Positions 2,182 to 28,150 of a stretch of 29,897 nt of DNA are shown here, in pieces. This DNA is from a virus. The translations under genes were made by a program, and so were the position numbers. The DNA is taken from UHGV virus genome UHGV-1792943; one strand, given 5' to 3'. The notes under the pieces were generated by a model. The model had not been told where the DNA came from and did not search any database. It saw only the letters and a list, made by a program, of their open reading frames with translations. Each line of letters opens with the position of its first letter. Position 1 is the first letter of the stretch.

Positions 2182-4103
2182 TAAAGAAACCTATTCGAAT
2201 AAATATCCAGTCCACTTTTGCAGATACGCTCACTGGATATACGCCTAATCGTTGGGTGGCGGAAGATATCACCGAGGATGATTTACTTATCGAGCCTGCG
2301 ACGCTGGAAGATATCGAGCTGGCCTATATGGGCAACGAAATTTTGGTAACTACCAATGAGGCAATGTTCGAAGCTTTAACCACAACAAAATTGCGGTTAG
2401 CGCAAACAATGCGAGCATTTGTCCGGGCGCTTAATCGCGGCCTGAATGGCACTGACATTGCTGCGGGTACGGATGAGGCAGGGGAATATGAAGACGGACG
2501 TAATAGTATCGGTGGGGCAATCATTGGGCGCGTGCGCCGGGTTGCTAATATCCCTGTTGTAACAGCACAAATACCTCTAACCGATGGACAAACGACAAGC
2601 ATAATTTTCCATTCTCCAACCGCAGACGGCACAAGAATTAAAGGGGATGACGAGCTGGTTGCGTTTCAGTTTCTTCTTAACAAAAGAAACGTTACGCATG
2701 TTGTTGCGCCAATCGGTGGGCGTGATGTATCTCTGAGCCAGGTGTGTCAGGCGCTTTCTAACCTCATTGAGCGTAACAGTGCAAAATTCAAAAAAGCAAA
2801 GGAGCGCCAGGACAAAATGAAGGCTGATATTGAGGGGTATCTCAATGAAGCCGACAAGCTGGCAGAAGAACGTTCTGTGCTGATTGAGCAGGTTGAAGAC
2901 GCACAGCGGGGGCTGGCAGAGAAACGCTCAACACTCAATGATATGCAGAATAAATTAGACGCACAAAAAGCCCTTAACGCGGAATTGCAGGCTAAGCGCG
3001 ATAATTTATTGTCAGCTAAGAGCCAAGGAACTAAAGAGCGTGCCTTCAATGATCAACTGCGACACATAAAACATAATCTTGCTACAGAAGGCCAAACAAC
3101 GCTGGATAATGGTGCTGTAGTTAAGTATGTCACGTCAGGCAGTGATAGCTTTGTCACGATTGAGGCACCAGAAGGCAATTTCAGTATTGATGTCAGTGCT
3201 GTTAAAGGTGGGAGTTCAGCGGACGCTGCAACCAAATTACTTAAAGCCTATCGTGAACATAATGCTGATCAATACAAAGTGGATGTGTTGCCGGGCCAGC
3301 CTGAGCCAACTGATCAGCCGCAGCCTGAACAGGAGCCACAACCAGCATCACATCCTGATCCCCTGGAGGTTGGTAAATATCGCTATGCGCTACAATCTCG
3401 CCCGGCGGGTGTTGGTGCGGTTCCTGAAGGAAATAAAGCTGTACTTGACCGTCCTGATCAGGCTGATCCGTATTACGAATATGCTCGTCACGGAATCATT
3501 ACGTATGACCGCAAACTGACAGACGAAGAAGTCAGTCAGTACGAATTACGCTATCTGCCTGATGACGATGAACTGAGAGGGATGGCGAACGAGCTGGTTG
3601 CGTCCAGCATGGTAAAACATATTGATGGCTATGTAGATCTGTTTGGAAGTGACCTGAAAACATTCAAGGCGCAAGTTAAAATTCTTTTCCGCAAAGCGTT
3701 CCCGAACGTGGCATATCCACTTGGTGATGGGGAGAACCTTTTCATTATGGACGTGTATAACGCCCTTCAAAATCATTCAAGCGAAGTAAAAACAGATCCT
3801 GTAGTTGAGCCAGAATCGCAACCTGCACCAGCACCAGAACAGGAGCCGGAGCCAGAAGAAGCGGGTGAATCAGCAAGCGAAGCTGACCAGGAAGCAGATA
3901 AAGCGCTTGAGTACCTGAAATCCGTTCCGGAGCAGTTCACATCCCGCGATCTGACGGTCATAAGTGCTGAACTTGATCATGTGCAGGAAGCTGCAAACGC
4001 TCTTATCAGTGCTGGTCGATATGACGAGAACGAAGCAACTGTAGGTGCAGCCGTTGACTACCTGATCAATATTCTGGCTGAAATTCAGCAGGGAGGTGCT
4101 TAA
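2178..4103 (+). CDS. large virion-associated protein, DarA-like by size and operon position (641 aa)
   Basis: ATGA overlap with the upstream gene; SD GGAGGAAG; two Pro/Glu-rich linkers (PEPTDQPQPEQEPQP and PESQPAPAPEQEPEPEE). Assignment to DarA is by analogy to the P1 darA operon, not by alignment. Confidence 0.5.
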   Translation: MIKKPIRINIQSTFADTLTGYTPNRWVAEDITEDDLLIEPATLEDIELAYMGNEILVTTNEAMFEALTTTKLRLAQTMRAFVRALNRGLNGTDIAAGTDEAGEYEDGRNSIGGAIIGRVRRVANIPVVTAQIPLTDGQTTSIIFHSPTADGTRIKGDDELVAFQFLLNKRNVTHVVAPIGGRDVSLSQVCQALSNLIERNSAKFKKAKERQDKMKADIEGYLNEADKLAEERSVLIEQVEDAQRGLAEKRSTLNDMQNKLDAQKALNAELQAKRDNLLSAKSQGTKERAFNDQLRHIKHNLATEGQTTLDNGAVVKYVTSGSDSFVTIEAPEGNFSIDVSAVKGGSSADAATKLLKAYREHNADQYKVDVLPGQPEPTDQPQPEQEPQPASHPDPLEVGKYRYALQSRPAGVGAVPEGNKAVLDRPDQADPYYEYARHGIITYDRKLTDEEVSQYELRYLPDDDELRGMANELVASSMVKHIDGYVDLFGSDLKTFKAQVKILFRKAFPNVAYPLGDGENLFIMDVYNALQNHSSEVKTDPVVEPESQPAPAPEQEPEPEEAGESASEADQEADKALEYLKSVPEQFTSRDLTVISAELDHVQEAANALISAGRYDENEATVGAAVDYLINILAEIQQGGA

Positions 4104-4471
4104 TGGCTATCTCTGTTTTAGAACGCCTGAAATTAGGTAAAGAGCTATCAGATCTAATGCAGGCGCAGAAAACCGCGCCAGTATTGCAACGCGTCTCAAT
4201 TGGTAAGCAGATTGTTGATGTGATGCTTAAACTGGGGCTTGGGGCTGCGGCCCAATCAGTATCGGATCCGCAGGCGCAGCCAGATACTGTTGCAGGTGAC
4301 ATTCCTAAGATAGTGACAGACTTCCTTGGAGGTGCATTCACAAAGTCCACGCAAATGGAATTTATTGATGCGCTACGTGGGATCTCAAACTATGTAGGCG
4401 AGTTCCTTACGTTGGAACAGGCTAAAGAGCAGACCATAAGCTGGGTGAAAGCCAACGGTTATGCAGGGTAA
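4103..4471 (+). CDS. small protein, DdrA-like by position (122 aa)
   Basis: TAATG overlap with the upstream gene; SD GGGAGG. Confidence 0.5.
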   Translation: MAISVLERLKLGKELSDLMQAQKTAPVLQRVSIGKQIVDVMLKLGLGAAAQSVSDPQAQPDTVAGDIPKIVTDFLGGAFTKSTQMEFIDALRGISNYVGEFLTLEQAKEQTISWVKANGYAG

Positions 4472-4514: not shown

Positions 4515-4526
4515 AAATCACACACT
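4515..4526 (+). promoter_or_regulatory. late-promoter-like conserved element (AAATCACACACT)
   Basis: Sits 38 nt upstream of the TTG start at 4565, after a hairpin at about 4474-4500. Confidence 0.35.
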
Positions 4527-4564
4527 TTTTACACTTCCTGCTTTCTATGTAAGGGGAGTGTATT

Positions 4565-7500
4565 TTGAACAAGTCAGTTACTTCCGCGCTATCCGAAGCA
4601 GCAGACATTAACAGTGTTATTGCGCTGGTTTCTTCATTAGAGAGGCGAGAAACACGCCAGGGGCGCAGTAGTTACGTAGTCACCAGTAAAGGGGCAGAGG
4701 TAAAGACGGCTTTTAAGGTCGTTGATGCCAGCAGTCTGATCATTTCGAACAACCTTGACGGTACGATTAATCCGGCCTTCCCGGAAGAACTCCAGCCACG
4801 TGACCGTACACGGCTATCCAGCAAACTCCAGGTTAACCGTATTGCCTCCAATTTACGCCCGGCACAATTAACGGATTCCGGCATGAGCAGCCACGGAGCG
4901 CCGATAGTTGGTCCGGACAACGTTGTTGAATCCGGCAACGGAAGGAGCATGGGTATCTGGCGTGCCTATGAGCAAGGGCAGGCGGATGAATATCGCCAGT
5001 ACCTGATCGATCATGCAAAAGAGTTTGGTCTGAATCCTGACGACATTTCACAAATGTCTATGCCCGTATTGGTGCGCGAAAGACTCACTGATGTTGATCG
5101 TGCGCAGTTCGCCCGCGATTCAAACATCAGCGATCTGCAAGAGATGGCTGCAAGTGAAAAAGCGTATGCGGATGCGCAATTTCTCACTGAGAGCGTCATG
5201 GCGCTATTTAATCCTTCAGATGATGGGAATCTACTGGCGCGGTCCAATGATGCGTTTATTCGTGCGTTTTTGCGCGAAATAGGTGATACGGCGACGGCAG
5301 GTTTGCTTACAGCCGATGGGCGTCCAACGAAACAACTTATCGACCGCATCCAGAATGCAATTTTTGCCAAAGCGTACAAGGATGAAAGGCTTGTTCGGTT
5401 GGTGGCGGAAGAGCCAGATCCGGAAATGCGTAACATCCTTACCGCATTAAATACGGCAGCCAGCGATTTTGCGCAAATGCAGTCGCTTTCAGGTGATGTT
5501 CACCATGACACGGTAACCGGACTGGTAGACGGTATAGAGCAATTGAATGGTCTGGATAAACAGGCTATTGCCGCGCTACAGGAAGCAATTAACCTTGTTC
5601 GTGAAGCAAAAGATAACGGTCAGGCAGTAGAAGAGGTGATCGCACAGCGTGGATTGTTTGGAGATAGCACTCCGGAAGCAGAAGCGCTTGCTCTGTTTAT
5701 TGTTGCCAACAACCGAAGCGCTAAGCGAATGGGGGCAGCTTTCAAGAAACTGGCGCAAAAAATTAACGATGAACTTATTCACCAGCAACAAGCGTTAGGC
5801 GATATGTTCGGCGGCGGAGATGTCGATCTGCGTAGCATTTTATCTGCCGTTTCTGATGAAATTGAGGCTGAGTATGGCGAAGGTAAAGGGCTTAATTTCG
5901 CCATGTTCGAATCAGTTTCGGGAGATGTCGAACCATACATTTCAAAGCTAATTGCTGATGCGACCAGCGTGGAGGACTTGATCCGAATCGTGAAGGCGTC
6001 AGAAAAAATTAAGGAGTCCGCAAAAAAAATAAAGCGCAATGTATTTTTGGAACTTGGTTTTTATATTCGCAATGTCACCGTTAATGAGATTAAGGCGTGG
6101 GCTAAACGTTATGGATACAGCAACGCTGTGTTAACAACGATGTTATTGTCTTATCAACGCAGCAATTTTTATGCTAACGCACTGCGTGACGCGATTGAAA
6201 AAGGAGATGAAGCTCCTTCACTCGCAGATGAAAGAAATATTGATTGTGACATTGAAACGTTTTGCAATATGTCAGAAGAAGGCGTGCCCGCTGAACAATT
6301 TATACGTGTTTTACATAATGCAGCAAAACATATTCCTGATGACTTTAGCATTGATGAATTGCGCAATGGTTGTCTTGTTTGGTTAGGTAACTATTTAAAA
6401 TCTCCAGCGTCTATTGCAGAGAAAACAGCTTTAAGATTTAGAAAGGAAATGAATAAAGCTGGAAGCGCAGAAGAGATGGTGCGCATAATCCAAAATACTT
6501 TGAAGTTATTCAAAAAGAGCTTGCATAATATCAACGATATTATGGCGGCTGGTAGGAAAATAACAGCCAGCGTCGGAGTTAGCTCCGAACTAACGGCAGA
6601 GGAGATCGCTGATGCGTATATTGAGACACTTGTCAGGCTTAAGGAGATAGTGGAATTAGCAGAGCATTCCTCATATTACGGAATCAAGGAGCGCGTTGAC
6701 TTTACTATAGAACAAATCAATAAAGTTAGGTCAAATAAGGAAAAACTCACTGACTACCTTGCTGAGGTTTTGCACCAGAATGATCATGGGATTGGATATG
6801 ATCTGAAAAAAATGCTTGTTTTTAATCTGGACATACCGGAAGACTTGCAAGCAGAATTATATGAAATAGCTTCATTAACACGTGGACAAAAAGCCTATCC
6901 TAATGCGCTTGAAAATGTAGTACATAAAAAAGTCAGAGCCGCATTTGACATGATTCTTGAATCGTCAAATGTGTCACATGACCAGTCTAAGGAATGGAGT
7001 CGTGGGATTGCTATTTCTGATGAAGCAGAGCAGTTAAGTGGTCACGATAATGAAACTTTCTCCCGTAAAGCATACAGTATTCGCGAGACAATTGAAAAAG
7101 CCTATATTATTTCAGGAGGGACTTTATCTACATTAAAAAATATTAACCACAAGAACAATGTTCGTGCTTTTGCAAGTCGAAATGGGAATATAACAATTGA
7201 TGCTAATAGTGATCATGAGCGTGTATTATGGCATGAAATAGGTCACCATATAGAACATTCAAATCCCCATCTATTGGAGAGGGCCAAAGCCTTCATTAAA
7301 TCAAAAACTAACGGTAAAGTTTCTTATCATAATATTGGTAGCCGTGGCAGTGCTGAGTATTTGGTGCGAACCGACCTAAGTCATGGATATATGTCTAAAA
7401 TTTATATGGAAAATACGGTAAGTTCTGTCAGCGGCAGATTTATATCAAAGCCACCTGCATTAAGCAATTGCAGGGCGACTGAGATTTTTTCTATGGCCTT

Positions 7501-7606
7501 GCAGATGTATGCCGATCCTGAGCAGGCGACTAACTCTGTATTAAACAATGACGGCGTGCTGGAATTTTTCTTGGGATGTATGAAGGAGTTGCAAAATGAA
7601 GTATAG
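4565..7606 (+). CDS. 1013-aa putative internal virion protein (DdrB-like by position) with ParB/Srx-like N-terminal motifs and a C-terminal HEIGH zincin-like motif
   Basis: TTG start with SD AAGGGGAG. N-terminal region reads ELQPRDR ... GAPIVGPDNVVESGNGRSMG (ParB-type spacing). HEIGHHIEH is encoded at 7232-7258. Confidence 0.6.
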   Translation: MNKSVTSALSEAADINSVIALVSSLERRETRQGRSSYVVTSKGAEVKTAFKVVDASSLIISNNLDGTINPAFPEELQPRDRTRLSSKLQVNRIASNLRPAQLTDSGMSSHGAPIVGPDNVVESGNGRSMGIWRAYEQGQADEYRQYLIDHAKEFGLNPDDISQMSMPVLVRERLTDVDRAQFARDSNISDLQEMAASEKAYADAQFLTESVMALFNPSDDGNLLARSNDAFIRAFLREIGDTATAGLLTADGRPTKQLIDRIQNAIFAKAYKDERLVRLVAEEPDPEMRNILTALNTAASDFAQMQSLSGDVHHDTVTGLVDGIEQLNGLDKQAIAALQEAINLVREAKDNGQAVEEVIAQRGLFGDSTPEAEALALFIVANNRSAKRMGAAFKKLAQKINDELIHQQQALGDMFGGGDVDLRSILSAVSDEIEAEYGEGKGLNFAMFESVSGDVEPYISKLIADATSVEDLIRIVKASEKIKESAKKIKRNVFLELGFYIRNVTVNEIKAWAKRYGYSNAVLTTMLLSYQRSNFYANALRDAIEKGDEAPSLADERNIDCDIETFCNMSEEGVPAEQFIRVLHNAAKHIPDDFSIDELRNGCLVWLGNYLKSPASIAEKTALRFRKEMNKAGSAEEMVRIIQNTLKLFKKSLHNINDIMAAGRKITASVGVSSELTAEEIADAYIETLVRLKEIVELAEHSSYYGIKERVDFTIEQINKVRSNKEKLTDYLAEVLHQNDHGIGYDLKKMLVFNLDIPEDLQAELYEIASLTRGQKAYPNALENVVHKKVRAAFDMILESSNVSHDQSKEWSRGIAISDEAEQLSGHDNETFSRKAYSIRETIEKAYIISGGTLSTLKNINHKNNVRAFASRNGNITIDANSDHERVLWHEIGHHIEHSNPHLLERAKAFIKSKTNGKVSYHNIGSRGSAEYLVRTDLSHGYMSKIYMENTVSSVSGRFISKPPALSNCRATEIFSMALQMYADPEQATNSVLNNDGVLEFFLGCMKELQNEV

Positions 7607-8633: not shown

Positions 8634-8645
8634 AAATCACATACT
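8634..8645 (+). promoter_or_regulatory. late-promoter-like conserved element (AAATCACATACT)
   Basis: Sits 40 nt upstream of the ATG at 8686. Confidence 0.35.
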
Positions 8646-8685
8646 GACTATGCTGCCGCAAACTGAAAACATTTCGCGGTGACTC

Positions 8686-12698: not shown

Positions 12699-12839
12699 TG
12701 TTCAGGCTTATATTCATGCCGTCGTAGCAAATTCTGCGACCGGGTTTAGCAGCCTGAATGTTAGTGCGGACAACCGCAGATATCCGATATTGCGGTATTT
12801 TTGTGTCCGTAAAACCGCGTTACGCCCAAATTATGGTGG

Positions 12840-12912
12840 GGCGTGATGGGGAGGCTTCGGCCTGCTGGTTTCACTAACGCCAGTCTGCTAACCCCGTCAC
12901 GTCCTGCCACCT
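12840..12912 (+). ncRNA. c4-like antisense regulatory RNA (boundaries approximate)
   Basis: Loops CACTAAC (12872-12878) and CTGCTAAC (12885-12892) are antiparallel complements of GTTTAGCAG and GTTAGTG. Those targets occur at 12746-12768 and again at 12913-12950, where GTTAGTG overlaps the SD of the downstream ORF. A UUCG tetraloop hairpin is present. Confidence 0.5.
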
Positions 12913-12961
12913 GTTTAGCAGCGGGTAGCAGGTTGTTAAACCTGTTAGTGAGGCCGTAACT

Positions 12962-13186
12962 ATGGTTAATGCCAATCCTTGCTCACGTCCAGAATTCATC
13001 TGGCGTTTTCACTCCCTGCAAAAACACTGCGATCACTTCGCAATTGCCGCAACTGAAAAAGAAGCCCGTTCTCTGATCCCTGATCAGTATGGCGTTCTCA
13101 CTGGTCGTTTCTCTACTTCCCCACAACCAAACACCAATCCCTGGTATCGCAATATTACCAATCCCGGCATTGCGGAGGCTCACTGA
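12962..13186 (+). CDS. icd: Icd-like small ORF translationally coupled to the antirepressor gene
   Basis: 74 aa; its SD is masked by the target repeat of the c4-like RNA; stop overlaps the ant start (TGATG). Architecture as in P1 immI. Confidence 0.5.
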   Translation: MVNANPCSRPEFIWRFHSLQKHCDHFAIAATEKEARSLIPDQYGVLTGRFSTSPQPNTNPWYRNITNPGIAEAH

Positions 13187-13893
13187 TGGATATCTGCATT
13201 CTCGAAAAGCCATCAATGACCAGCATTGAGATCGCGGAGCTGGTGGGAAAACGTCATGACAATGTGAAACGCACTATTGAGACATTAGACAAAGGTGGCG
13301 TTATTGTTCGTCCTCAAATTGAGGTTTTCGAAAAAATCAATAACTTAGGACTACGACGTAGTGTTGAGGCTTACGTCTTCGAAGGCGAGCAAAGCAAGCG
13401 CGATAGCATTATCGTCGTCGCGCAGCTCTCTCCCGAATTCACCGCCCGGCTGGTGGACCGCTGGCGCGAACTGGAAGAACAAGTACGCCAGCCGTTGACC
13501 GAAATAGAGATGATCGCTGCAATGGCTGCAAATGCAGTTCAGCAGCAAAAGCGGCTTCATGTTGTTGAGTCAAAGGTTAGCCAGGTTGCTGAAACCGTCG
13601 AGCAGATCAAGAAGGGCAACATGCCAGAAGGTTACATTGGCTATCGCCAGTTAGCGGCGAAATGTGGCCTGACTGAAGCCAAATGCCGTAACCTGGTCAA
13701 CGCTTACCGGATTCCCACAGATACGCATGAGTTTTTGACGCCAGAGGGGGTATTGTCGCGTCGTACTATTGTGGCCTTATCTCCCTTCATGAATGCCTTT
13801 ACCCTGATGATGTCGGAGGCTGAACACCGAGGAAAACGCTGGTATCACCCAAGGATGGGACAATTCCAGGTGATCGGTTGGGGAGGCGAGTGA
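13186..13893 (+). CDS. ant: antirepressor (Rha / Ant family)
   Basis: N-terminal SIEIAELVGKRHDNVKRTIETL is typical of Rha/antirepressor N-domains; SD GGAGG. Confidence 0.65.
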   Translation: MDICILEKPSMTSIEIAELVGKRHDNVKRTIETLDKGGVIVRPQIEVFEKINNLGLRRSVEAYVFEGEQSKRDSIIVVAQLSPEFTARLVDRWRELEEQVRQPLTEIEMIAAMAANAVQQQKRLHVVESKVSQVAETVEQIKKGNMPEGYIGYRQLAAKCGLTEAKCRNLVNAYRIPTDTHEFLTPEGVLSRRTIVALSPFMNAFTLMMSEAEHRGKRWYHPRMGQFQVIGWGGE

Positions 13894-14098: not shown

Positions 14099-14123
14099 GC
14101 CCCGGCCTGGCCGGGGCTTTTTC
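14099..14123 (+). terminator. rho-independent terminator
   Basis: gccccgg-cctgg-ccggggc followed by TTTTT. Confidence 0.75.
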
Positions 14124-14613
14124 ATGCCTCATTAGTTGAGGTTGCTGCGTCGCCGACAGGTAACAGAGCTGTATTGCGTGGTTCGCCAGCAGGCCAGCGA
14201 TAGCCAGACACTCTTGATGTTGGGAATGCGCGAATATTAACAGCATCCCCCTGGTTCCCACCCAAGACAAGCAGATCGCCATTGGCGCGGCGTCCGACAA
14301 CAAAGCCTACATGCCCACCGCCTGCGCGAGTAAATACAACGATACATCCGTATGCCGGTGTATCTAATTTCTCGCCCCAATCCAGATAGGATTTTGCCGA
14401 CTCAAATCTTGTTGAGCGGATGCCTACACGTTCCAGCATTGCACCGACAAATGCTGCGCACCACGGCGTTTCATCGTCTTTAATTCCACCGCGCTTAATA
14501 TCCCGCCAGAACTGGACGATCTCAGGATTGTGTTTCGCTCCTTTTATTTCGGTGACTCCAATATTTTTACGGGCTTCAATAAGCCAGCGAGGTTCATTAT
14601 TGATCATAATCAT
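14122..14613 (-). CDS. CHAP / NlpC-P60-like peptidoglycan hydrolase (TIGR02594-like)
   Basis: Candidate catalytic Cys in PWCAAFVGAM and His in GGGHVGFVVG. The true start may be the third codon (14607), which has better SD spacing. Confidence 0.55.
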   Translation of the reverse strand: MIMINNEPRWLIEARKNIGVTEIKGAKHNPEIVQFWRDIKRGGIKDDETPWCAAFVGAMLERVGIRSTRFESAKSYLDWGEKLDTPAYGCIVVFTRAGGGHVGFVVGRRANGDLLVLGGNQGDAVNIRAFPTSRVSGYRWPAGEPRNTALLPVGDAATSTNEA

Positions 14614-14756: not shown

Positions 14757-14800
14757 GGTTATTATTGGTTTGCGTTATTTATTTGAGAAAAGAGAAAGTT

Positions 14801-15298
14801 ATGAAAAAAGCAATATTAGCGACTATTGTTTGTGCATTTGCATTATCAGGATGCGCTCCGGTTCAGACATACAACAAGCCTCAGCAAGTAAAACAGTTTG
14901 TTAAACGCCCAGCATTCCCTGTAGAGGAATATCAGGCATTGCCGAAAAAAGGCACAGGTAAGGTTAAGGGGGAATTATTTGGAGTAACTCGCGGAGGGGA
15001 TGTGAAGATTGGTGCTGGCTCCAATATCATACTGCGTCCGTATACTTCATATATCAAAAATACCCCCAAAATTGATTACGACACTCAGACCTTAGAAATA
15101 ATCGACGGCAGGGTTGCGGAATATGACAGAACTGTCCTGACTGATGCTCAAGGCAAATTTGAGTTCGAAAACGTACCACCAGGCCAGTATGAAGTGATTG
15201 GTTCGTTCAGTTGGTATGCTGGAAATTTCCCGCAAATCGTTCTTCTGAACAAAATCATTACCGTTAAGAACGGTGATGTTATCCAGGTTCAACCATGA
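14801..15298 (+). CDS. lipoprotein with a carboxypeptidase-regulatory-like beta-sandwich motif
   Basis: Signal peptide with lipobox LSGC; TDAQGKFEFENVPPGQYEV motif. Start taken at the internal ATG of the track ORF. Confidence 0.65.
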   Translation: MKKAILATIVCAFALSGCAPVQTYNKPQQVKQFVKRPAFPVEEYQALPKKGTGKVKGELFGVTRGGDVKIGAGSNIILRPYTSYIKNTPKIDYDTQTLEIIDGRVAEYDRTVLTDAQGKFEFENVPPGQYEVIGSFSWYAGNFPQIVLLNKIITVKNGDVIQVQP

Positions 15299-15338: not shown

Positions 15339-15350
15339 AATTAACACACT
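15339..15350 (+). promoter_or_regulatory. late-promoter-like conserved element (AATTAACACACT)
   Basis: Sits 44 nt upstream of the start at 15395. Confidence 0.35.
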
Positions 15351-15394
15351 CCATACCCTCTCAAACCGTACCGCTTAAGGCGGATTTAACGGTT

Positions 15395-18300
15395 TTGAGG
15401 GGGCTTCCTTTGGACAAAATAATTGATTCAATTAGCCAGGCCACCAGCATTGGGGCGCTGATTGAAATTGTTAGTCGGTTGCATAAACCGCGAGCTGTAG
15501 TGACCTTTGGCGTTAAGAAAGTCGATGGCGTCAGTATTCAGAAAACACGCCGGGCAGCAAACAACGCCGCAGTAAATCTTCTTAATTCCCTTCCGCCTGG
15601 CTTCGATGGGGCGAAATTAACTGACGAACAGCGCCAGATTCTTGCCGGGTATACCGGTGAAGGCGGCCTGACAGATGGTGAGGGCAGCCAATACGAATAC
15701 TATACGCCACAGTTTATGGCAGAAGGTATATGGGATCTCTTCGGCGACTACGGTATTGATAGCGGTCACGTACTGGAACCGTCAGCAGGCACAGGTATTT
15801 TCCAGGAGACAAAACGGCAGGGCATGATAATGACCAGCGCCGAACTGTCTCCGATCTCCGGTCGAATAAACCAGCTTTTGCACCCGGAAGATGATGTGAA
15901 TATCGGGGCGTTTGAGGCGCTGGCGGCGAAAGATGCAATGTATGACCACGCAGTTGGTAACGTACCGTTTGGCGAAGGGCGTTCCGGCGTCGCCGGGCTT
16001 GATCCGGCATATGCAAACGAGAAGAACGTTGGCAATTATTTTGTGCTGCGCACGATCGACAAGGTTAAGCCTGGTGGACTAATTGTATTGGTGGTGCCGA
16101 ATGGCATGACCGATGGTACGAAATACAAAAAATTGCGCGATAAAGTCAGCCGTAAAGCGGAATTTTTGGGCGCGCATCGTATGCCTTCTGGTACGTTCAG
16201 CGAATCCGGTACAGATACCGTGGTGGACGTATGGGTATTGCGTAAACACCCGGAAACCTTCCTGGAGATGATCCCCGACACGGATGATGCAACGCTCAAA
16301 TCGGCAAACGTCCTTTGGGATACCTTCCTCAAAGGGAAATGGTTTACAACCGAAGGGAAGCGATTTGTTTACGGCGACATGGAACGCACCAGCTTCCGCA
16401 ATACCCTGGTGGTGAAAAAGGACGGTCGTGTATCCAATGAGTCGATGAAAACCGCGTTATCACGCCGCTTTGAAAGCCGTATTAATTGGGATTTGCTCGG
16501 AGTAACTACCCAGGCATGGCAGGGCGCAAAAGTAGGGGATAAGCGTCTTGTAGGCGGTATCTGGCATGAGTTTGATGGCCTGAAATGGGTTAAGGACACG
16601 ACAACCAAATCCTCCGCGCTTGATGTAAGTCGATATGGTGTTTCGACGTTTGGCGATCTGCAGATCGCGTTCCAGTCAACAAACGGGATTCTGGCTTTGT
16701 CATGGGACCAGATATCGGCGATCGCGTCCGACTATCCATCGGTTGTCAGTGATGAAGTGGCAGCAATGATTCGCTTTGCTGGCAAACAGCGAGAAAAAGA
16801 CAGGGAGCGCGTTATGCGCGGTGCGTTGATAGGGCAGTTGATCAACAAGGCACTTGATTTGCGTAACCTGGGGGTGAACGTTGATGACAAACTGGCAGAT
16901 GCATCCCGCCTGGCGGCAGCAGAAGTTGCGAAGTATGGACCACCGCACGCGATTAAGCTGAATGGGCTTGCTGAAGCTGGCGCTAAAAACTGGATGACGT
17001 TCACTGGCAATGTGAAACAGGATGGTTCCACTTCTGACCTTCTGGCAGGGCGACTTGATGTAACGGATGGTGCTGCCGGTATTGACTTTACACGTCCGGA
17101 ACAAGTGATAGCACATCTTTTCAGTGATGTAGCCCTTAATCCTATAACGCTGGGCGACTTTCGTGAGGCGTTTGCTGGTGAACTGCCAGAGGACGACGAC
17201 GCGGCCCTTGAATACCTGGCGAAATTTGATGATATCGCTATTGATGGGTATGGCTGCCTGCTACCGATGGACCGCGCCACCAGCGGCGATATTGTAACCA
17301 AAACAGCATTGCTGGTGGGCTGGCGTGATGCATCAACAGGTGAGCAGAAAGCGAACTTTGAGCGTCAGTTGGCGAAAATCGAAGAGAAACGCATTTTCAC
17401 GCCACTAAATAAAGTCACCGTTAATCTGAACGCCCGCTGGCTGGATCGCCGCTTGATAAAAGAGTTCCTGGCAGAGCAGGGCTATGACGAGTTTAAGTAC
17501 ACAGAACCTGATCTGAAGATCGTCGATGGCATTCTGGTATCTCCGGACGATTACGAAGGTAAGGACGGGGTATTTACCGGCTATCAGCTACGAACCGTAA
17601 ACGGCAAAAACGGGAATGAGTTCAAGAAGGCCAACAATAAAGACGGCTTCCTGAACCAGTTAGAAAACTACCTGAACGGTGTTAAACCGCGTGGGCAGAA
17701 CGCTAACGAGTACCTGGATAAAATTGCTCAACTGGAAGTTAGCTTTAACGACTGGTTACGCACCCACCCGCAGGCGGATCAGATAGCCCGTGACTATAAC
17801 GACGCATTCAATGGCTTCATTCCGTTCACGCACTCTAACGCACCGCTTGGCCTGGAAGGGATTAGTGGAAAGCGCATTCCTCTGACTTATCAGAATGAAG
17901 AAGTTCGTCGCTTGTCAGAAGATGGGCGCGGCATCATGGGATTTGGTACCGGGCTGGGTAAAACCACGACCGCGCTTGCGCTTGAGGCGTATAACTTCGA
18001 AACAGGTCGTACTAAACGCACGTGTATTGTTGTTCCGAAGGCGGTTTATCAGAACTGGTATCACGAGGCACAGAGCTTCTACAGTGCTGATGCCTTCGCC
18101 AATATGATGTTTATCGGTCTGGATGAAGTTCGTGATGACAGCGGAAATATTCTGACCGCTCCGGTGCTTGATGAAAATGGCGAACCCCGCCTCGACAGTA
18201 ACGGGCAGCCTCTTACCAGAAATGTTGTGAAAGAGTCCGCCAGCGCCGTTATCGTTCAGCGCATGAACATGATCCCGTCGTCAAATTGGCGAACGGTCAT

Positions 18301-21300
18301 CATGACAAAAGAACAATTCGCGTCTATCCCGCTACGAGAAAAAACCATCGAGGAGAACTCACAGCAAGCTGTCTTTAATGCTGTGGAAATGGGGCGTCTT
18401 GACCTGGCGTCTGGTAAACATCGTGATGCGCAGAAGAAGAACAAGATTAAGGATCAGGCCGCGAATACCGGTACAACGAAGAAGCAGAATATCCCGTACT
18501 TTGAGGATATGAACTTCGATAGCGTGATTGCCGACGAGGGGCATAACTACCGCAACTCCTTTAATGCCGGGCGTGAAGCGGGACAACTGGCATATTTGCC
18601 TAACCCGGCAGTATCCAAGATGGCCCGCGACATGGCTGTAAAAGCTGCGTACATGATGAAACGCAACAACGGGCGTGGTGTAGTCATGCTGACGGCAACA
18701 CCGCTGGTGAACAGTCCGATTGATGCCTTCAACATGCTGTCTACAGTCATTCCGCAGGAAGAGTGGATGCGCATGGGCATCATTACGCCTGATGATTTCG
18801 TTCGTGTGTTTGGTAAAACAGCCACAGTTCAGGTCCAGAAAATTTCCGGGGAAGTGGAAGAGAAGCAGGGGCTGGTTGGCTTCCAGAACCTTGATGGCCT
18901 GCGTGGTATTTTCCATCGCTGGACTACTCTGAAGACTGCTGCGGACGTCGGGGCGACGGTTAAAATCCCTGATATTGTCGAGAATACCTTGCAGATCCCG
19001 ATGACAGGGGAGCAGGAGGCTGCTTATGAAGAGCTTCGTAAGCGTGCACAGGAGTTAAGTAGTAAAGATGCGCTGACGGTTGATGAAAACGGGCATATCA
19101 CAAACGAAAAACCGGATGATTTCATCTTCTCCATCATCCGCGACATGGATAAGGTTGCTATAGATCCGGATCTGTATGCCAGTGCGATTACATTCCAGTT
19201 CCCCGTTGAGCTTGCAGACAAGGTAAAAGCTATTGCTGATGCCCTGCCAAAAGTAGCTGGCGGTAAAGTGGCAGATGATGCAGACGAGGCCGAAGAAGAC
19301 GGCGCTGGTGGGCTGGTTAGTACGCGCACCAGTAAGGTAGTGAAGACCACCTTTAGTGAACATCCGGCGCATGTTGAAATACGTGCCAGCATTGAACTGG
19401 AAGCTGAAATACTGAAGGCCATTGCTGCCGCCGGGATTGATATGCAGCAGGTATCACACCCAATCCCGCCGAAGTATGCCGCGCTGATCGAAAACCTTCG
19501 TGAAGGTCTGAAGAACGGTAAACAAATTGTCTTCATTGATGAAAAAGCCCAGCACCAGAAGCTGCGCCGTATTATCGCCAGTGCACTGCAAATGCCGGAG
19601 CAAGAGATAGGCATTATCAATGCGACGACCGTTAGCCAGGCTGGCGGCATCAAGCTGAAGAAGGTGAATAAGCCGACTGAACCTACTCCGAATAAAAACG
19701 GTGAATACAAAGAAGGGGCATGGGAAACCTACTACAGCAAACTTGCCCAATATGAGGATTATCTCTCAGCTAAAAATGATGCTGGCCTTGAGGGTATGGA
19801 AGGCATTGCCGCCGACTATAACGAAGGGCGCACGCGCATAATTATCTGTAACAAGAAGGCTGAAGTAGGTATTAACCTGCATATCGGGACAACCGATATC
19901 CACCACCTGACACTACCCTGGACACCAGCCAGTATCGACCAACGAAATGGGCGCGGTGCGCGCGTAGGTTCACCGCAAGAGAAGGTCAATGTTCACTACT
20001 ATTGTGGCAAAGGCACATTCGACGACTTCCGTCTGGATACGCTGAAACGTAAGAAAGACTGGATCAAGATGGTGATGACCTCCGACATGTCAGAGATCGC
20101 CAATGGTGATGCGGATGATGCTGATGAACGCGCCATTATGCTGGCGGCAAACCCGGAAGAACGCCGCGCAATCATGGCTCGCCAGGCGCAAGAGCGTGAA
20201 GAACGTCTGAAACTGAAAGCACAGCGCGAGGCCAACAATGCTCTCGATATCTACCTGAAAGCGGCAAACGCCGCTGGAAAAGATATCGGCATGATGGAGA
20301 CAGAACTGAAAAGCGCGATGGAACAGATAGAGTATTACCAGCGAAATCTTGACGACCTGATAAAAGCAGGTACGAACAGGAATGGGCAAAAATTCGCGCT
20401 TGAGCAGTTGAGTAGCTACAGAAAACGTGCGCGGGTGCTGCGGTTTGCGATCACCAGGGCAAAAGACGCGGATACCATAATGAAACGCTCTCGTGGTGAT
20501 GTGGAGCGCGCTATTAAGTCTGGTGTGCTGGATATCAGTATCGATGTTATTCAGAACCCACAGGAATATATGCGCACTGACAAGAATATCCTGTTGCATA
20601 AAGGTAGTTATTACCGTGCAGTCATTGATGATCGCGAAACAACAGCGATTGTCCGGGTGGAAAAAATTGACGGTGAAAAAGCACAATACCTCTGCCGTAT
20701 CGCCTGGCTGGATAGAGCAAGTCGTTACGCTCGATCACCGGGGTCAATCGTTACATTGCCGTTTGACTCTGTGATTGAAGCGGTAACTTTTGAAGAGGGG
20801 GTAGCTGAATCGCGCGCAACGGCTGCGCGTGGTGTTCAGTGCCACCAGCTATCAACAATACTTACTCGCGATCAGTTCTATGATGCTATTCGCAATGGGG
20901 TAATGAATGTTATTGCTGGTAAACCTGGTAATGCATGGGGCGGTGGGTCAGCTATTAAATACTGGGCATATCGCACAGATGATGGTCAGATCGCGCTGTC
21001 ATCGGCCTATGATGGCGTGATAGGCCAAAAAATCGGGCGAGCATCGGATATAGCACCTGAACGATGGATATATCCAGATGGCAACGATGAGGCGCTGAAG
21101 CGTGAAGTGGCAAAAATACAAGCCAGTGATAACCCGCTGAATATCGTGGACGGCGAGGGATTCCTCCAGGCATTGTATGGGTATGATTACATCCAGGGAA
21201 TGCAGGCATGGGGCGCACAGGCAACGATGGATGATGTTGTCCAGGAGTTCGAAAACTGGATGGCTGGGCGTGGTCTGTCAGGTCGTTCGCTTAATAAAGT

Positions 21301-22246
21301 CACTTCTGAAGATATTCTTAGCTTGTTCCGCAAACCGTCCGGAGAAGGTCTGGAATCATTCTGGAGGACCGTGCTGGCATACCGTTTATTCAAGGGCAGA
21401 ATGAAAGCCTTTAGCAATATCGATGATATTGAACGGATGTTTAATCAGGTCAAGATCGCCAAAATTAAGACGAAGATCGAAAAAACACGTTCTGCGCTGG
21501 TGGCCTGGCGCGATGCATTGTTTGAGCAATATAAATCACTCAGTGATGCAGATGGATGGGCGGCATTGGAACAGTTGGCGAATAATGGGGTAGATGGAGC
21601 GAAACTCGCCATAGTCCAGGCTGATAACCCCCTGGAATCACCGGCAGCACAGTGGATTAAGGTGGGGGCTGTCATCAATGCATTTGATGAAAAACACATT
21701 AGTAAGGACGATTTTGCTGATGCTGTTTCTGTTAATCGCCTGGTAGAAATGGCTACCCGCCGCGCCCGTGAGTTGAAAGACGGTGACTATGTGAATGAGT
21801 TGCCGGATGCGCTCAAATCAGCAACGTGGCAAGACTATGTATCGCTGAAAAACGGCGGGGCCACCGAATCAGAGATCGCGGAAAGGCTTGAACAGGCTGA
21901 AAGCAAAAGAGAAGAGCAGGCGGCAGTGGCTGAAGCCAGAGCTGATGAAGCGGCGAATGATGACTATATCATTGTGGTTAATGATAAGCCGATTCGCGCT
22001 AAGGCGCGTGTTCGCGGGCGCTGGTGGAGTGTCAGCGAGGACGTCGGTGCGGTTTATCTCATTGCCGACCAACCTGGTTCCTCGACAATACGGAACGCCA
22101 AAGACGCGATTAAGAAGATTGGCGGGCGTTTCTGGAATTTTGAAGCAAACCCGGTTGCTGATGTGAACTTTGACCGTCCTGCATGGATGGTATCTACGCG
22201 TTACTCGGTAGATGAACTGCGTAAAATAATCGCCGATGCGGCCTAA
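15395..22246 (+). CDS. darB: giant N6-adenine methyltransferase plus SF2 helicase protein, DarB-like (2283 aa)
   Basis: MTase motifs YYTP, EPSAGTG (nt 15776-15796) and GNVPFG (nt 15956-15973). Helicase motifs: Walker A GTGLGKTT (from nt 17939), DEGH (nt 18533-18544), TATP, QRNGRGAR. TTG start is uncertain. Architecture and size match phage P1 DarB as recalled. Confidence 0.7.
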   Translation: MRGLPLDKIIDSISQATSIGALIEIVSRLHKPRAVVTFGVKKVDGVSIQKTRRAANNAAVNLLNSLPPGFDGAKLTDEQRQILAGYTGEGGLTDGEGSQYEYYTPQFMAEGIWDLFGDYGIDSGHVLEPSAGTGIFQETKRQGMIMTSAELSPISGRINQLLHPEDDVNIGAFEALAAKDAMYDHAVGNVPFGEGRSGVAGLDPAYANEKNVGNYFVLRTIDKVKPGGLIVLVVPNGMTDGTKYKKLRDKVSRKAEFLGAHRMPSGTFSESGTDTVVDVWVLRKHPETFLEMIPDTDDATLKSANVLWDTFLKGKWFTTEGKRFVYGDMERTSFRNTLVVKKDGRVSNESMKTALSRRFESRINWDLLGVTTQAWQGAKVGDKRLVGGIWHEFDGLKWVKDTTTKSSALDVSRYGVSTFGDLQIAFQSTNGILALSWDQISAIASDYPSVVSDEVAAMIRFAGKQREKDRERVMRGALIGQLINKALDLRNLGVNVDDKLADASRLAAAEVAKYGPPHAIKLNGLAEAGAKNWMTFTGNVKQDGSTSDLLAGRLDVTDGAAGIDFTRPEQVIAHLFSDVALNPITLGDFREAFAGELPEDDDAALEYLAKFDDIAIDGYGCLLPMDRATSGDIVTKTALLVGWRDASTGEQKANFERQLAKIEEKRIFTPLNKVTVNLNARWLDRRLIKEFLAEQGYDEFKYTEPDLKIVDGILVSPDDYEGKDGVFTGYQLRTVNGKNGNEFKKANNKDGFLNQLENYLNGVKPRGQNANEYLDKIAQLEVSFNDWLRTHPQADQIARDYNDAFNGFIPFTHSNAPLGLEGISGKRIPLTYQNEEVRRLSEDGRGIMGFGTGLGKTTTALALEAYNFETGRTKRTCIVVPKAVYQNWYHEAQSFYSADAFANMMFIGLDEVRDDSGNILTAPVLDENGEPRLDSNGQPLTRNVVKESASAVIVQRMNMIPSSNWRTVIMTKEQFASIPLREKTIEENSQQAVFNAVEMGRLDLASGKHRDAQKKNKIKDQAANTGTTKKQNIPYFEDMNFDSVIADEGHNYRNSFNAGREAGQLAYLPNPAVSKMARDMAVKAAYMMKRNNGRGVVMLTATPLVNSPIDAFNMLSTVIPQEEWMRMGIITPDDFVRVFGKTATVQVQKISGEVEEKQGLVGFQNLDGLRGIFHRWTTLKTAADVGATVKIPDIVENTLQIPMTGEQEAAYEELRKRAQELSSKDALTVDENGHITNEKPDDFIFSIIRDMDKVAIDPDLYASAITFQFPVELADKVKAIADALPKVAGGKVADDADEAEEDGAGGLVSTRTSKVVKTTFSEHPAHVEIRASIELEAEILKAIAAAGIDMQQVSHPIPPKYAALIENLREGLKNGKQIVFIDEKAQHQKLRRIIASALQMPEQEIGIINATTVSQAGGIKLKKVNKPTEPTPNKNGEYKEGAWETYYSKLAQYEDYLSAKNDAGLEGMEGIAADYNEGRTRIIICNKKAEVGINLHIGTTDIHHLTLPWTPASIDQRNGRGARVGSPQEKVNVHYYCGKGTFDDFRLDTLKRKKDWIKMVMTSDMSEIANGDADDADERAIMLAANPEERRAIMARQAQEREERLKLKAQREANNALDIYLKAANAAGKDIGMMETELKSAMEQIEYYQRNLDDLIKAGTNRNGQKFALEQLSSYRKRARVLRFAITRAKDADTIMKRSRGDVERAIKSGVLDISIDVIQNPQEYMRTDKNILLHKGSYYRAVIDDRETTAIVRVEKIDGEKAQYLCRIAWLDRASRYARSPGSIVTLPFDSVIEAVTFEEGVAESRATAARGVQCHQLSTILTRDQFYDAIRNGVMNVIAGKPGNAWGGGSAIKYWAYRTDDGQIALSSAYDGVIGQKIGRASDIAPERWIYPDGNDEALKREVAKIQASDNPLNIVDGEGFLQALYGYDYIQGMQAWGAQATMDDVVQEFENWMAGRGLSGRSLNKVTSEDILSLFRKPSGEGLESFWRTVLAYRLFKGRMKAFSNIDDIERMFNQVKIAKIKTKIEKTRSALVAWRDALFEQYKSLSDADGWAALEQLANNGVDGAKLAIVQADNPLESPAAQWIKVGAVINAFDEKHISKDDFADAVSVNRLVEMATRRARELKDGDYVNELPDALKSATWQDYVSLKNGGATESEIAERLEQAESKREEQAAVAEARADEAANDDYIIVVNDKPIRAKARVRGRWWSVSEDVGAVYLIADQPGSSTIRNAKDAIKKIGGRFWNFEANPVADVNFDRPAWMVSTRYSVDELRKIIADAA

Positions 22247-22282: not shown

Positions 22283-22717
22283 ATGACGACATTAATTGAC
22301 ACTGTAAAACCGACGGAATCCTACCTTGAGGACATTTTGCCGCAGGCGCTCAATGGCAGGAGTGAAGAGGCGTTTCTGGATGCATATCTGGATGGCATGG
22401 CGGAAAGGCTGAAAAGAGATCCACAGCTTTATCATCTTTATGGGCCGTGGTGGCCTGCGCTTAAAACGTTATTGCTGGAGCGTGGCGACATATCATTTGG
22501 ACAAGTTGTAGATAGTGATGTGGCAGAAATCTACAAAATGAGTCGCCCGGCGCTTACGGTTTTAGCCGGGCATCTGTATTCGAGCGATCGCCTGGAAAAT
22601 GACGCGGTATACAATCCCGTTCATGCTCTGGAAGTCGCGCCTTATGCTGATGATACAGAGCCATACGTATACACAAGTTACGACGAGTCTATAGAGAAAT
22701 ATCGAATCGTGGGGTAG
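22283..22717 (+). CDS. hypothetical protein (144 aa)
   Basis: ORF directly after the giant gene; no motif recognised. Confidence 0.45.
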   Translation: MTTLIDTVKPTESYLEDILPQALNGRSEEAFLDAYLDGMAERLKRDPQLYHLYGPWWPALKTLLLERGDISFGQVVDSDVAEIYKMSRPALTVLAGHLYSSDRLENDAVYNPVHALEVAPYADDTEPYVYTSYDESIEKYRIVG

Positions 22718-26799: not shown

Positions 26800-26876
26800 G
26801 ATGGTGTAGCTCAGTAGGATAGAGCAGCAGCCTTCTAAGCTGTCGGTCGGTGGTTCGAATCCACCCACCATCGCCA
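26800..26876 (+). tRNA. tRNA-Arg (anticodon TCT)
   Basis: Full cloverleaf folded by hand: acceptor gatggtg / caccatc, anticodon loop cttctaa, T-loop ttcgaat, encoded CCA. Confidence 0.8.
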
Positions 26877-26882
26877 ATTTAG

Positions 26883-26968
26883 GGGAGTTAGTCCGTAGGG
26901 GTAGCGGGGTAGACTGTAAATCTACTGTCATTGCGACTCGGATGGTTCGACTCCATCACTCCCCACCA
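26883..26968 (+). tRNA. tRNA-Tyr-like (anticodon GTA), long variable arm, slightly irregular D-arm
   Basis: Acceptor ggggagt / actcccc, anticodon stem gtaga / tctac with loop ctgtaaa, 15-nt variable arm, T-loop ttcgact, CCA. Confidence 0.5.
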
Positions 26969-26972
26969 AATT

Positions 26973-27048
26973 GCCGGTTTAGCTCAGTTGGTAGAGCGCC
27001 TGCCTTGTAAGCAGGATGTCAGCGGTTCGAGTCCGTTAACCGGCACCA
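26973..27048 (+). tRNA. tRNA-Thr (anticodon TGT)
   Basis: Acceptor gccggtt / aaccggc, anticodon loop cttgtaa, T-loop ttcgagt, CCA. Confidence 0.8.
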
Positions 27049-27050
27049 AC

Positions 27051-27146
27051 ACAACAGGTAAGGGTATTTTGCGACGTCGGAGATCGCCGAGCTTGGCAGA
27101 GGGTTCGAATCCCTACGAAGTACCCTTACCGTTGTGATGAATGCAC
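27051..27146 (+). repeat. hairpin family member H3, with an internal T-arm-like minihelix
   Basis: Arms ACAACAGGTAAGGGTA / TACCCTTACCGTTGTG, tail ATGAATGCAC; begins 3 nt after tRNA-Thr. Confidence 0.55.
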
Positions 27147-27315
27147 AGGCTGATGTGCCGCAACTACAGTAGTGCGCGCTTTGCGGGGCTTGCTACAACC
27201 CTGTGTCGGAATTCAGCACCGACCATCACAGTTTGATTCTCTGGCATGAGCATAACGCTGAAATAAGTCCAGTCTGGTGCGGTCTGATCACCCGCCGTTA
27301 GCTCCACGATACGGA

Positions 27316-27416
27316 GCGCACAACAGGTAAGAGTATTTGTAGAGTTCGACTCTCTACCGTGGGCTTTTTCCCGCGATGCGAGCCATAAATGCTCTTTCCG
27401 TTGTGGTGAATGCGCG
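27316..27416 (+). repeat. hairpin family member H4, with an internal perfect T-arm-like hairpin (gtagag-ttcgact-ctctac)
   Basis: Arms GCGCACAACAGGTAAGAGTATTTG / AAATGCTCTTTCCGTTGTGG, tail TGAATGCGCG. Confidence 0.55.
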
Positions 27417-27558
27417 TTGCTAGCGCGCAAGTCCGCCCTATGGCAACGAGGCGGCGTAGTAAATATCGATGCCTCAGTCATCAAGCGCACTGACCGGCCT
27501 TATGGGCTATGAAAAAAAGAGGCGCAGTCGGAGTTCAGCACCGACCATCACAATCACT

Positions 27559-27645
27559 GGAGAGTAGGGAGCATGGTGCTCAAGCGGTCTTGAAAACCGT
27601 CCCATTGCGCAAGCGATGATGGTTCGATTCCATTACTCTCCGCCA
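27559..27645 (+). tRNA. tRNA-Ser-like (anticodon TGA), type II with long variable arm
   Basis: Acceptor ggagagt / actctcc, anticodon stem gcggt / accgt with loop cttgaaa, T-loop ttcgatt, CCA. The D-arm is not perfectly canonical. Confidence 0.45.
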
Positions 27646-27768
27646 GCGCAACGTTAAGAGTATTTGGCTAATTAAGCGAATGCCGGAAGCAGAACCGGAT
27701 CACCAAATGCGTACAGGCGTCATCGCCGCCCAGTCAGCCAAATGCTCTTACCATTGCGGTGAATGCGG
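27646..27768 (+). repeat. hairpin family member H5
   Basis: Arms GCGCAACGTTAAGAGTATTTGGC / GCCAAATGCTCTTACCATTGCGG, tail TGAATGCGGC; starts at the base after the tRNA-Ser-like CCA. Confidence 0.55.
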
Positions 27769-27936
27769 CTAAGCGCACGCGGAACAGTTAAAACAGTAAA
27801 GGTGGTCTTTTTACTGGCGTAACGAGAATCCATAAGTGATCCGGCGTTAATTGTTAACTGGTTAACGTCACCGGGAGGCACCCGGCACCGCAACCTAACA
27901 GCAATGGCGTTTTGTCTTAAAAGGTGGCTGCAAGTG

Positions 27937-28065
27937 ATGGATTTTTGGGCGTTTGCCGATAAAAACCCGGAGTGGACATTATTGTTTCTGCTGGTGGTTG
28001 CATACGGGGTAGAGCAAGCGGCAAAAGCCTTACGCGGTTCTGGCAAAAAGCGTAAGCGTAATTAA
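27937..28065 (+). CDS. 42-aa small membrane peptide (MDFWAFADKNPEWTLLFLLVVAYGVEQAAKALRGSGKKRKRN)
   Basis: SD AAGGTGG 8 nt upstream of the ATG; one hydrophobic helix and a basic tail; absent from the ORF track because it is under 60 aa. Confidence 0.35.
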   Translation: MDFWAFADKNPEWTLLFLLVVAYGVEQAAKALRGSGKKRKRN

Positions 28066-28074
28066 CAGTAATCT

Positions 28075-28150
28075 GGCCCTTTAGCTCAGTGGTTAGAGCG
28101 GGCGACTCATAATCGCACGGTCACCGGTTCAAGTCCGGTAGGGGCCACCA
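28075..28150 (+). tRNA. tRNA-Ile2 (anticodon CAT, lysidine type)
   Basis: Near-identical to the enterobacterial ileX-type tRNA as recalled: acceptor ggccctt / aggggcc, anticodon loop ctcataa, T-loop ttcaagt, CCA. Confidence 0.8.

Follow-up and report, generated by a model that had tools for sequence, protein, structure and literature searches.

We analysed a 29,897-nucleotide stretch of the virus genome UHGV-1792943 (hereafter the window), in which the plus strand carries a single stop-free open reading frame (ORF) at 15395-22246, 2283 codons when counted from the first TTG. By sequence comparison, this gene is the orthologue of the P1 antirestriction gene darB in a D6-like phage-plasmid of the P1 family. 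The ORF was confirmed as real; a stop-free run of 2283 random codons is expected with a chance of ~(61/64)^2283, which is ~1e-48 by our own arithmetic. In the BLASTP comparison with P1 DarB (YP_006479.1, 2255 aa), which had been set beforehand as the test in which lack of homology would speak against the assignment, the protein aligned over residues 1-1935 with 43% identity (1521 bits, E = 0). The last ~570 residues were aligned end to end with ~20% identity in an 11-sequence alignment, and this part shares with P1 DarB the motifs YPD..D..LK and FL.ALFG..Y and a C-terminal AKD.IK...F/W block. The best PHROG match covered the full length of the protein, and 'DarB-like antirestriction' was among the PHROG matches. 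The initial annotation had proposed a DarB-type protein, and this is borne out by the alignments with P1 DarB, which together span nearly the entire protein. The annotation of D6 orf15 (ASR76325.1, GenBank MF356679), 'defense against restriction; similar to P1 gene darB', agrees.

At the nucleotide level, the gene was 96.9% identical to that of Escherichia phage D6 across its whole length by megablast, and the darB genes of P1, P7, and SJ46 were matched only in a ~170-bp patch of ~80% identity. There were 392 plasmid records matching the gene. In 113 of these, the match covered 80% or more of the gene, and the highest identity, 99.8%, was to E. coli plasmids; almost all records were of non-mobilizable plasmids from E. 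coli or Salmonella. Since the gene order of the window is also that of the D6 record, these matches assign the window to a D6-like phage-plasmid of the P1 family. The protein is 98.1% identical to D6 orf15 over all 2278 residues (43 differences), and the TTG start, the downstream ulx, and the leader hairpin are the same in both. D6 differs in having a 455-aa ddrB and two small hypothetical ORFs, whereas ddrB of the window is full length (1013 aa compared with the 995 aa of P1 DdrB), and in being without the extra plus-strand gene that lies directly upstream of darB in the window. The DarB identity of the gene is already known, from the D6 annotation and as an archetype of the methylase-SNF2 dyad, and as a system it is nothing new. 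RefSeq labels the protein only as 'SNF2-related protein', and a better annotation is of practical value, D6-like phage-plasmids being common in clinical E. coli and Salmonella as the matching plasmid records indicate.

The partners of DarB are also present. Homologues of hdf, darA, ddrA, and ddrB were found in the window (Table 1), whose products are 34-44% identical to the P1 proteins, and ulx follows darB directly, the order being as in P1. The Dar partners, Ulx included, are 34-46% identical to those of P1, compared with 51% for the portal and 41% for the protease. Because the Dar partners are as diverged as the portal and protease, the Dar set has probably diverged together with the phage, which suggests vertical orthology and not a swapped-in gene; the similarity to the P1 genes is not due to chance. 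The D6 lineage retains the entire Dar set. Common to P1 and the window are thus the darB-ulx linkage, the full set of Dar partners, and the layout of DarB itself, namely N-terminal helices, an LPD36-like region, a putative gamma-class N6-adenine methyltransferase with NVPF, a middle region, an SNF2 motor, and a long C-terminal module. P1 darB differs in its ATG start and its lack of a structured leader, and it is divergent from prt; in the window, pro and darB are separated by repL, the c4/anti-repressor region, and a gene for a peptidoglycan hydrolase. The C-terminal ~650 residues are 10-20% identical to those of P1 DarB.

The initial annotation placed the start at the TTG at 15395, which gave 2283 residues. 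A non-ATG start is unavoidable since this frame has no ATG until after the YYTP motif, but the start is almost certainly the second in-frame TTG at 15410, giving a protein of 2278 aa. The Shine-Dalgarno (SD) sequence GAGGGGG (15397-15403) is 6 nt upstream of this TTG, the D6 GenBank coding sequence (CDS) and the RefSeq CDS on a 99.8%-identical plasmid both begin at the equivalent TTG, D6 has TTT at the position of the first TTG, and the ATG of P1 darB aligns to TTG 15410. In the 2278-aa protein, all the motifs that had been named (YYTP, EPSAGTG, NVPF, GKT, DEGH, TATP, and QRxGRxxR) were found. The spacing of about 650 residues between the two motif sets and the C-terminal extension of about 780 residues were measured as 666 residues from NVPF to GKT and 760 residues after motif VI. 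The resemblance to P1 DarB in architecture and size (~2250 aa), with an N6-adenine methyltransferase, an SF2/SNF2 helicase, and a long C-terminal extension, was likewise upheld.

Residues 1-830 were modeled by AlphaFold2 with a 56-sequence alignment (mean predicted local distance difference test (pLDDT) score, 82.4). The model places aa 96-300 in the gamma-class N6-adenine DNA methyltransferase fold, in which EPSAGTG (motif I, binding S-adenosylmethionine) precedes NVPF (motif IV). The best Foldseek matches in the PDB were HsdM subunits of type I restriction-modification systems (7eew, 3ufb, 2okc, and EcoKI M 2y7c/2ar0; E 4e-9 to 8e-7). Together with BsaXI, PacII, M.BseCI, and M.TaqI, they were matched with a probability of 1.00 (E 4e-9 to 1e-6), and CamA and the Type ISP enzyme LlaBIII were also matched, the overall E values being 4e-9 to 1e-5. 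Sequence and profile searches of the PDB with the full-length query yielded only marginal HsdM (7eew, 2y7c) and SNF2 matches. HsdM (EcoKI M 2ar0/2y7c; V. vulnificus 7eew) is the closest solved fold for aa ~90-300, and HsdM belongs to the type I enzymes that DarB defeats. Its identity to the present domain is 13-20%, and HsdM works with HsdR whereas the domain here is fused to an SNF2 motor; neither an HsdS partner nor a target-recognition domain was detected.

The initial annotation regarded NVPF as a non-canonical catalytic motif. The motif does depart from the consensus, but it is not a peculiarity of this gene, as N[V/I]PF was invariant in 120 full-length homologues (position 185 is Val in 116 and Ile in 4 of them). 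Methyltransferase-domain homologues from Desulfovibrio (46% identity) also carry NVPF. In view of these alignments, NVPF is a hallmark of the DarB clade and not a local defect. The adenine-N6 methyltransferases KsgA and Erm use N-[L/I]-P-Y, and a hydrophobic second residue is therefore compatible with catalysis.

The homologues were obtained by a search of 5.8 billion proteins, which returned 1281 hits. Nearly all of the top 120 hits were 2200-2320 aa in length and came from ~80-100 kb contigs of Enterobacterales and Aeromonas; when the N-terminal 300 aa of DarB were scanned against genome contigs, only 4 loci were found. Conservation was evaluated with an alignment of 120 full-length members of 36-96% identity. 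Invariant residues in the methyltransferase were E96, T99, P100, E123, G129, N184, P186, and F187, and those in the ATPase were G848, G850, K851, D1042, E1043, H1045, A1096, T1097, P1098, Q1511, R1512, and G1514-R1518. The motifs EYYTP, EPSAGTG, N[V/I]PF, GTGLGKT, DEGH, TATP, and QRNGRGAR were thus invariant or nearly so. The ATPase was also recognized by Pfam, with SNF2-rel_dom at 49.3 bits (cutoff 24.9), Helicase_C at 24.3 bits (cutoff 23.5), and ResIII above its cutoff. That N[V/I]PF and all of the ATPase motifs show little or no variation argues that both enzymatic activities are used.

Identity to distant members, computed in 60-residue windows, was mostly 60-73% in the methyltransferase and the two ATPase lobes, 27-37% at aa 361-540, and mostly 11-22% at aa 1620-2278. 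The ratio of nonsynonymous (dN) to synonymous (dS) substitution rates was estimated by the Nei-Gojobori method against D6 and the relatives L030, L003, and L004. It was 0.03-0.05 in the methyltransferase, 0.01-0.04 in the two SNF2 lobes, 0.05-0.07 in the SNF2 insert, and, for those C-terminal segments with unsaturated dS, 0.08-0.31. Judged by these ratios, the protein is under purifying selection along its whole length and the last third changes its amino acids much faster. The synonymous divergence was mosaic along the gene. Against D6 (L001), dS was 0-0.02 at aa 1561-1870 and 0.10-0.26 in most other segments; against L030, it was ~0.19-0.29 at aa 1-300 and mostly 0.8-2.8 beyond (0.36 in SNF2 lobe 2). 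This mosaic suggests intragenic recombination between D6-like lineages within darB.

Four helices were predicted in the N-terminus (residues 2-9, 14-25, 43-60, and 72-79), where P1 DarB has its capsid-targeting sequence, and they are followed by a Rossmann-type domain; Y81, G83, G85, and G86 were invariant. G83-E-G85-G86 matches the GxGU motif of LPD36, a domain that precedes DarB-type methyltransferases (Iyer et al., PMC5512222). The protein resembles the methylase-SWI2/SNF2 dyad of polyvalent proteins described in that study in its LPD36-like helices with GEGG at 83-86, in its EcoKI/TaqI-like methyltransferase with a TP cap, and in its C-terminal SNF2 ATPase with inserts. It differs in that motif IV of the dyad was described as NPP(Y/F) while the DarB clade has N[V/I]PF throughout, and in that, unlike the dyad polyvalent proteins, it carries no other effector domains. 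The region between the methyltransferase and the helicase (aa 301-820) was mostly modeled with confidence; its identity to distant homologues was 27-51% over most of its length and 60% at aa 781-840. It had no Pfam match, and no target-recognition domain was identified in it.

The initial annotation had asked what the C-terminal third does. Residues 1560-2278 gave a predicted model with a mean pLDDT of 86.8, in which helical, barrel-like, and mixed domains follow one another (Table 1). Foldseek with this model found nothing at E < 0.2, and nothing meaningful was found by Pfam with six subdomains and 11 aligned C-termini or by a PDB profile search. An exhaustive phmmer search of the C-terminal third against 1.84 billion representative proteins gave 33 hits. 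These were short fragments and, among full-length proteins, only ones of DarB size in which the C-terminus was matched, so that no independent domain context beyond DarB-like proteins was seen. On these searches, the last third of the protein forms a rapidly evolving module confined to the DarB family, to which no function could be assigned. By analogy only, Tudor-like barrels beside helicase motors often mediate docking to proteins or nucleic acids, and Tudor-like domains in other bacterial helicases dock onto RNA polymerase. A speculative and rather unlikely idea is that the C-terminal module is the specificity determinant of DarB, docking the methyltransferase-translocase core onto RNA polymerase or onto particular restriction or BREX complexes of the host. 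If this were true, the C-terminus would set which restriction families are evaded by the DarB of P1 and of D6, and its divergence between the P1 and D6 types would have arisen from arms races that the two fought against different systems of their hosts.

From its orthology with P1 DarB, the protein is very probably a packaged, cis-acting antirestriction protein. P1 DarB was detected in the virion by mass spectrometry at ~40 copies per head, and its N-terminal 30 residues are enough to direct a reporter to the capsid (PMC9024508). The Dar proteins join in order onto Hdf/DarA (PMC12810830), Dar protects only the DNA packaged with it (PMC12707154), and P1 darB mutants are sensitive to EcoB and EcoK (PMC11109961). 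Several points weigh against this assignment. Residues 6-10 of P1 DarB, MGVFR, which are involved in capsid targeting, align with DSISQ here and are not conserved, and identity to P1 DarB over the first 60 aa is only 30%; the N-terminus nevertheless keeps a semi-conserved pattern (A12/S14/L18-I19/I22/L25/R29) together with the predicted helices. Pfam N6_Mtase scored 20.0 bits, just under its cutoff of 20.4, and motif IV has Val or Ile in place of one Pro of the (N/D)PP(Y/F/W) consensus. The antirestriction observed with cloned P1 darB came from Chi and EcoKI sites on the plasmid and not from the protein (PMC11109961), and thus the protein-level evidence for P1 DarB rests on phage genetics only. 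Methyltransferase activity or DarB-dependent methylation has been reported for no DarB, and reviews of 2024-2025 call the mechanism undefined (PMC11109961, PMC12707154), ~40 years after the discovery of DarB, a classic injected antirestriction protein.

An alternative is a packaged DarB orthologue with a non-catalytic methyltransferase, protecting DNA by ATP-driven translocation alone, which would displace or block type I complexes, or by binding restriction subunits through its HsdM-like surface. The deviating motif IV, the Pfam score barely below the cutoff, the unreported methylation, and a fold nearest to HsdM, which is a partner of HsdS and HsdR, would fit such a protein. Motif I, the TP cap, and N-x-P-F are, however, invariant or nearly so in the 120 homologues, the dN/dS of 0.03-0.05 is a pattern like that of an active site, and the corresponding motif of KsgA and Erm works; we therefore regard a non-catalytic domain as unlikely. 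It is far less probable that the gene encodes a non-virion cytoplasmic enzyme of the phage or plasmid which shares ancestry with DarB and serves in self-modification or as a replication or recombination helicase. Such an enzyme would explain why the capsid-targeting residues of P1 are not conserved and why RefSeq names only an SNF2-related protein, but not why homology to P1 DarB begins at the first residue, why Ulx, Hdf, DarA, DdrA, and DdrB are all kept with similar divergence, why darB is located among head genes, or why a late-promoter-like box precedes it as it does the portal and dar/lysis operons.

A prophage defence or restriction-modification enzyme directed against other invaders, like DrmD of DISARM or a Type ISP/Type I-like enzyme, is hardly credible. 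There were weak local matches to the helicase cores of DrmD, ZorD, DpdE, and BrxHII and to methyltransferase models, as well as the Foldseek match to LlaBIII. The scores were far below the family cutoffs (DrmD, 45.3 bits against 610; DpdE, 31.6 against 500), covered the generic helicase lobe only, and in PADLOC were local matches of at most 38 bits, and membership in the DrmD and DpdE families was rejected on this ground. Neither a nuclease nor a target-recognition domain was found by Pfam, NCBIfam, and PDB searches, which speaks against a Type ISP/Type I enzyme, and darB is flanked by Dar and head genes and not by partner defence genes.

For the packaged antirestriction protein, experiments on P1 would imply that DarB is made late and that its N-terminus brings it into the prohead, where it joins the Hdf/DarA scaffold with the help of DdrB and Ulx. 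Some tens of copies per head would then be ejected along with the DNA and protect that DNA only, in cis, from type I restriction of the EcoKI/EcoBI type. In the mechanism that we favour as a hypothesis, the SNF2 motor would track the entering duplex while carrying the HsdM-like N6-adenine methyltransferase, so that target adenines of type I enzymes would become at least hemimethylated. Hemimethylation would be enough to make EcoKI-type enzymes carry out maintenance methylation and no longer cut. Translocating restriction complexes may in addition be displaced, dislodged, or blocked by the motor, and the C-terminal module may be an adaptor that contacts either host targets or partners among the Dar and capsid proteins. 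Since a few tens of molecules cannot coat ~90 kb of DNA, passive shielding is disfavoured, and the conservation of both active sites fits a motor combined with a methyltransferase. How DarB works is a worthwhile question, for which the D6-like locus is no more tractable than P1.

Table 1. Features of the window and of the DarB-like protein (aa, residues in the numbering of the 2278-aa protein)
Feature	Position	Strand	Basis or remark
darB CDS	15410..22246	+	TTG start, 2278 aa plus stop
N-terminal helices and LPD36-like helical region, aa 1-95	15410..15694	+	AlphaFold2 helices, invariant residues
Putative gamma-class N6-adenine DNA methyltransferase, aa 96-300	15695..16309	+	EYYTP cap, motif I EPSAGTG, motif IV NVPF
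Conserved mixed alpha/beta region between methyltransferase and helicase, aa 301-820	16310..17869	+	AlphaFold2 model
SNF2-type SF2 ATPase, two lobes, variable insert at ~aa 1201-1440, aa 821-1560	17870..20089	+	Pfam, motifs I/II/III/VI
Fast-evolving C-terminal module, aa 1561-2278	20090..22243	+	only in DarB-like proteins
YYTP	aa 97-100		
EPSAGTG	aa 123-129		
NVPF	aa 184-187		
GLGKT	aa 848-852		
DEGH	aa 1042-1045		
TATP	aa 1095-1098		
QRNGRGAR	aa 1511-1518		
Three-helix coiled coil	aa ~1568-1703		predicted structure
Tudor/SH3-like barrel, then further beta strands	aa ~1720-1792		
All-alpha domain	aa ~1894-2182		predicted structure
Small alpha/beta domain	aa 2186-2278		predicted structure
Late-promoter-like element of darB	15344..15359	+	ACACACT-CCA-TACCCT (box, 3 nt, TANNNT -10-like hexamer)
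Late-promoter-like hits	754-769, 4520-4535, 8639-8654, 15344-15359	+	~45-65 nt upstream of lydA (dar/lysis operon), ddrB, prt, and darB
Leader hairpin	15356..15403	+	3' arm is the SD; RNAfold -27.6 kcal/mol, z = -3.7
hdf homologue	1540-2181	+	PHROGs
darA homologue	2178-4103	+	NCBIfam anti_RE_DarA, 1155 bits; PHROGs
ddrA homologue	4103-4471	+	PHROGs
ddrB homologue	4565-7606	+	44% identity to P1 DdrB
ulx homologue	22283..22717	+	PHROG 1629 'Ulx-like anti-restriction', E = 4.5e-59; 46% identity to P1 Ulx
c4 antisense RNA	12708-12760	+	Rfam, 70 bits
a1/b1 target element of c4	12829-12914	+	Rfam, 53.9 bits
Five tRNA genes: Arg(TCT), Tyr(GTA), Thr(TGT), Ser(TGA), Met(CAT)	26800-28150	+	

The leader of darB contains a late-promoter-like element. 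The pattern ACAHACTNNNTANNNT (ACAHACT-N3-TANNNT) gave 4 hits in the window, all on the plus strand, compared with 0.13 expected, a statistic that is partly circular because the pattern was derived from the same sites. It recurs ahead of darB and/or prt in D6 and in the relatives L003, L004, and L031-L033. A scan of IMG/VR with the pattern returned mostly unrelated chance matches, the only darB leaders being those of L021 and L025. The layout, a box followed by a short spacer and TANNNT, resembles that of the Lpa-dependent late promoters of P1, whose box AAGTGACTT is different in sequence. The D6 lineage is assigned a putative late-promoter box of its own, different from that of P1. P1-type late promoters were sought with AAGTGAYT...TANNNT and then with ACAAGTGACTT allowing 2 mismatches, and nothing above chance was found. 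In D6, the lpa activator gene lies directly past the position equivalent to the end of the window.

The SD of darB forms the 3' arm of a hairpin in the leader (Table 1). In 8 sequences of 5 lineages, the SD was fully or nearly fully paired in the minimum free energy fold (z -3.0 to -7.0), and all 8 of these genes start with TTG. The relatives starting with ATG (P1, L005, and L006) had no stable leader fold (z +0.6, +1.6, and -1.0). The stem sequences differ between lineages (TCTCAAACCGT, TTCACATCC, TTCACGTC, CCCCCCACT, and CCCTTACA). RNAalifold on a MAFFT alignment of the leaders recovered only 6 SD-proximal pairs because the stems were out of register, and the leaders were folded sequence by sequence in place of alignment folding. 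The joint occurrence of a weak TTG start and a masked SD suggests deliberate throttling of a costly 2278-aa protein. The 5' arm of the hairpin overlaps the -10-like hexamer, and a transcript starting ~7 nt after the hexamer would therefore lack the anti-SD sequence. Either the hairpin acts in read-through transcripts only, or transcription starts elsewhere, or the repeat acts at the DNA level.

Chi (GCTGGTGG) was strongly enriched in the window, with 15 sites in 29.9 kb compared with 0.8 expected, 11 of them on the plus strand. Seven sites are inside darB (15441, 17277, 17311, 19304, 20842, 21496, and 22020). P1 darB is reported to carry 11 Chi sites, which caused the antirestriction artefact on cloning (PMC11109961).

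The extra gene upstream of darB (14765-15298, plus strand, 177 aa) lies between darB and a TIGR02594 peptidoglycan hydrolase gene (14122-14613, minus strand). RefSeq names its product 'carboxypeptidase-like regulatory domain-containing protein', and its N-terminus weakly matches Cor superinfection-exclusion lipoproteins; the gene may be a moron. The c4 RNA and its a1/b1 target are upstream of an anti-repressor gene (13186-13893) and constitute an immI immunity region of the P1 type. The tRNA cluster is not the same in the window and in D6: in the region corresponding to the five tRNA genes of the window, the D6 record has Asn, Thr, and Ser tRNAs, which are encoded on the strand opposite to darB.

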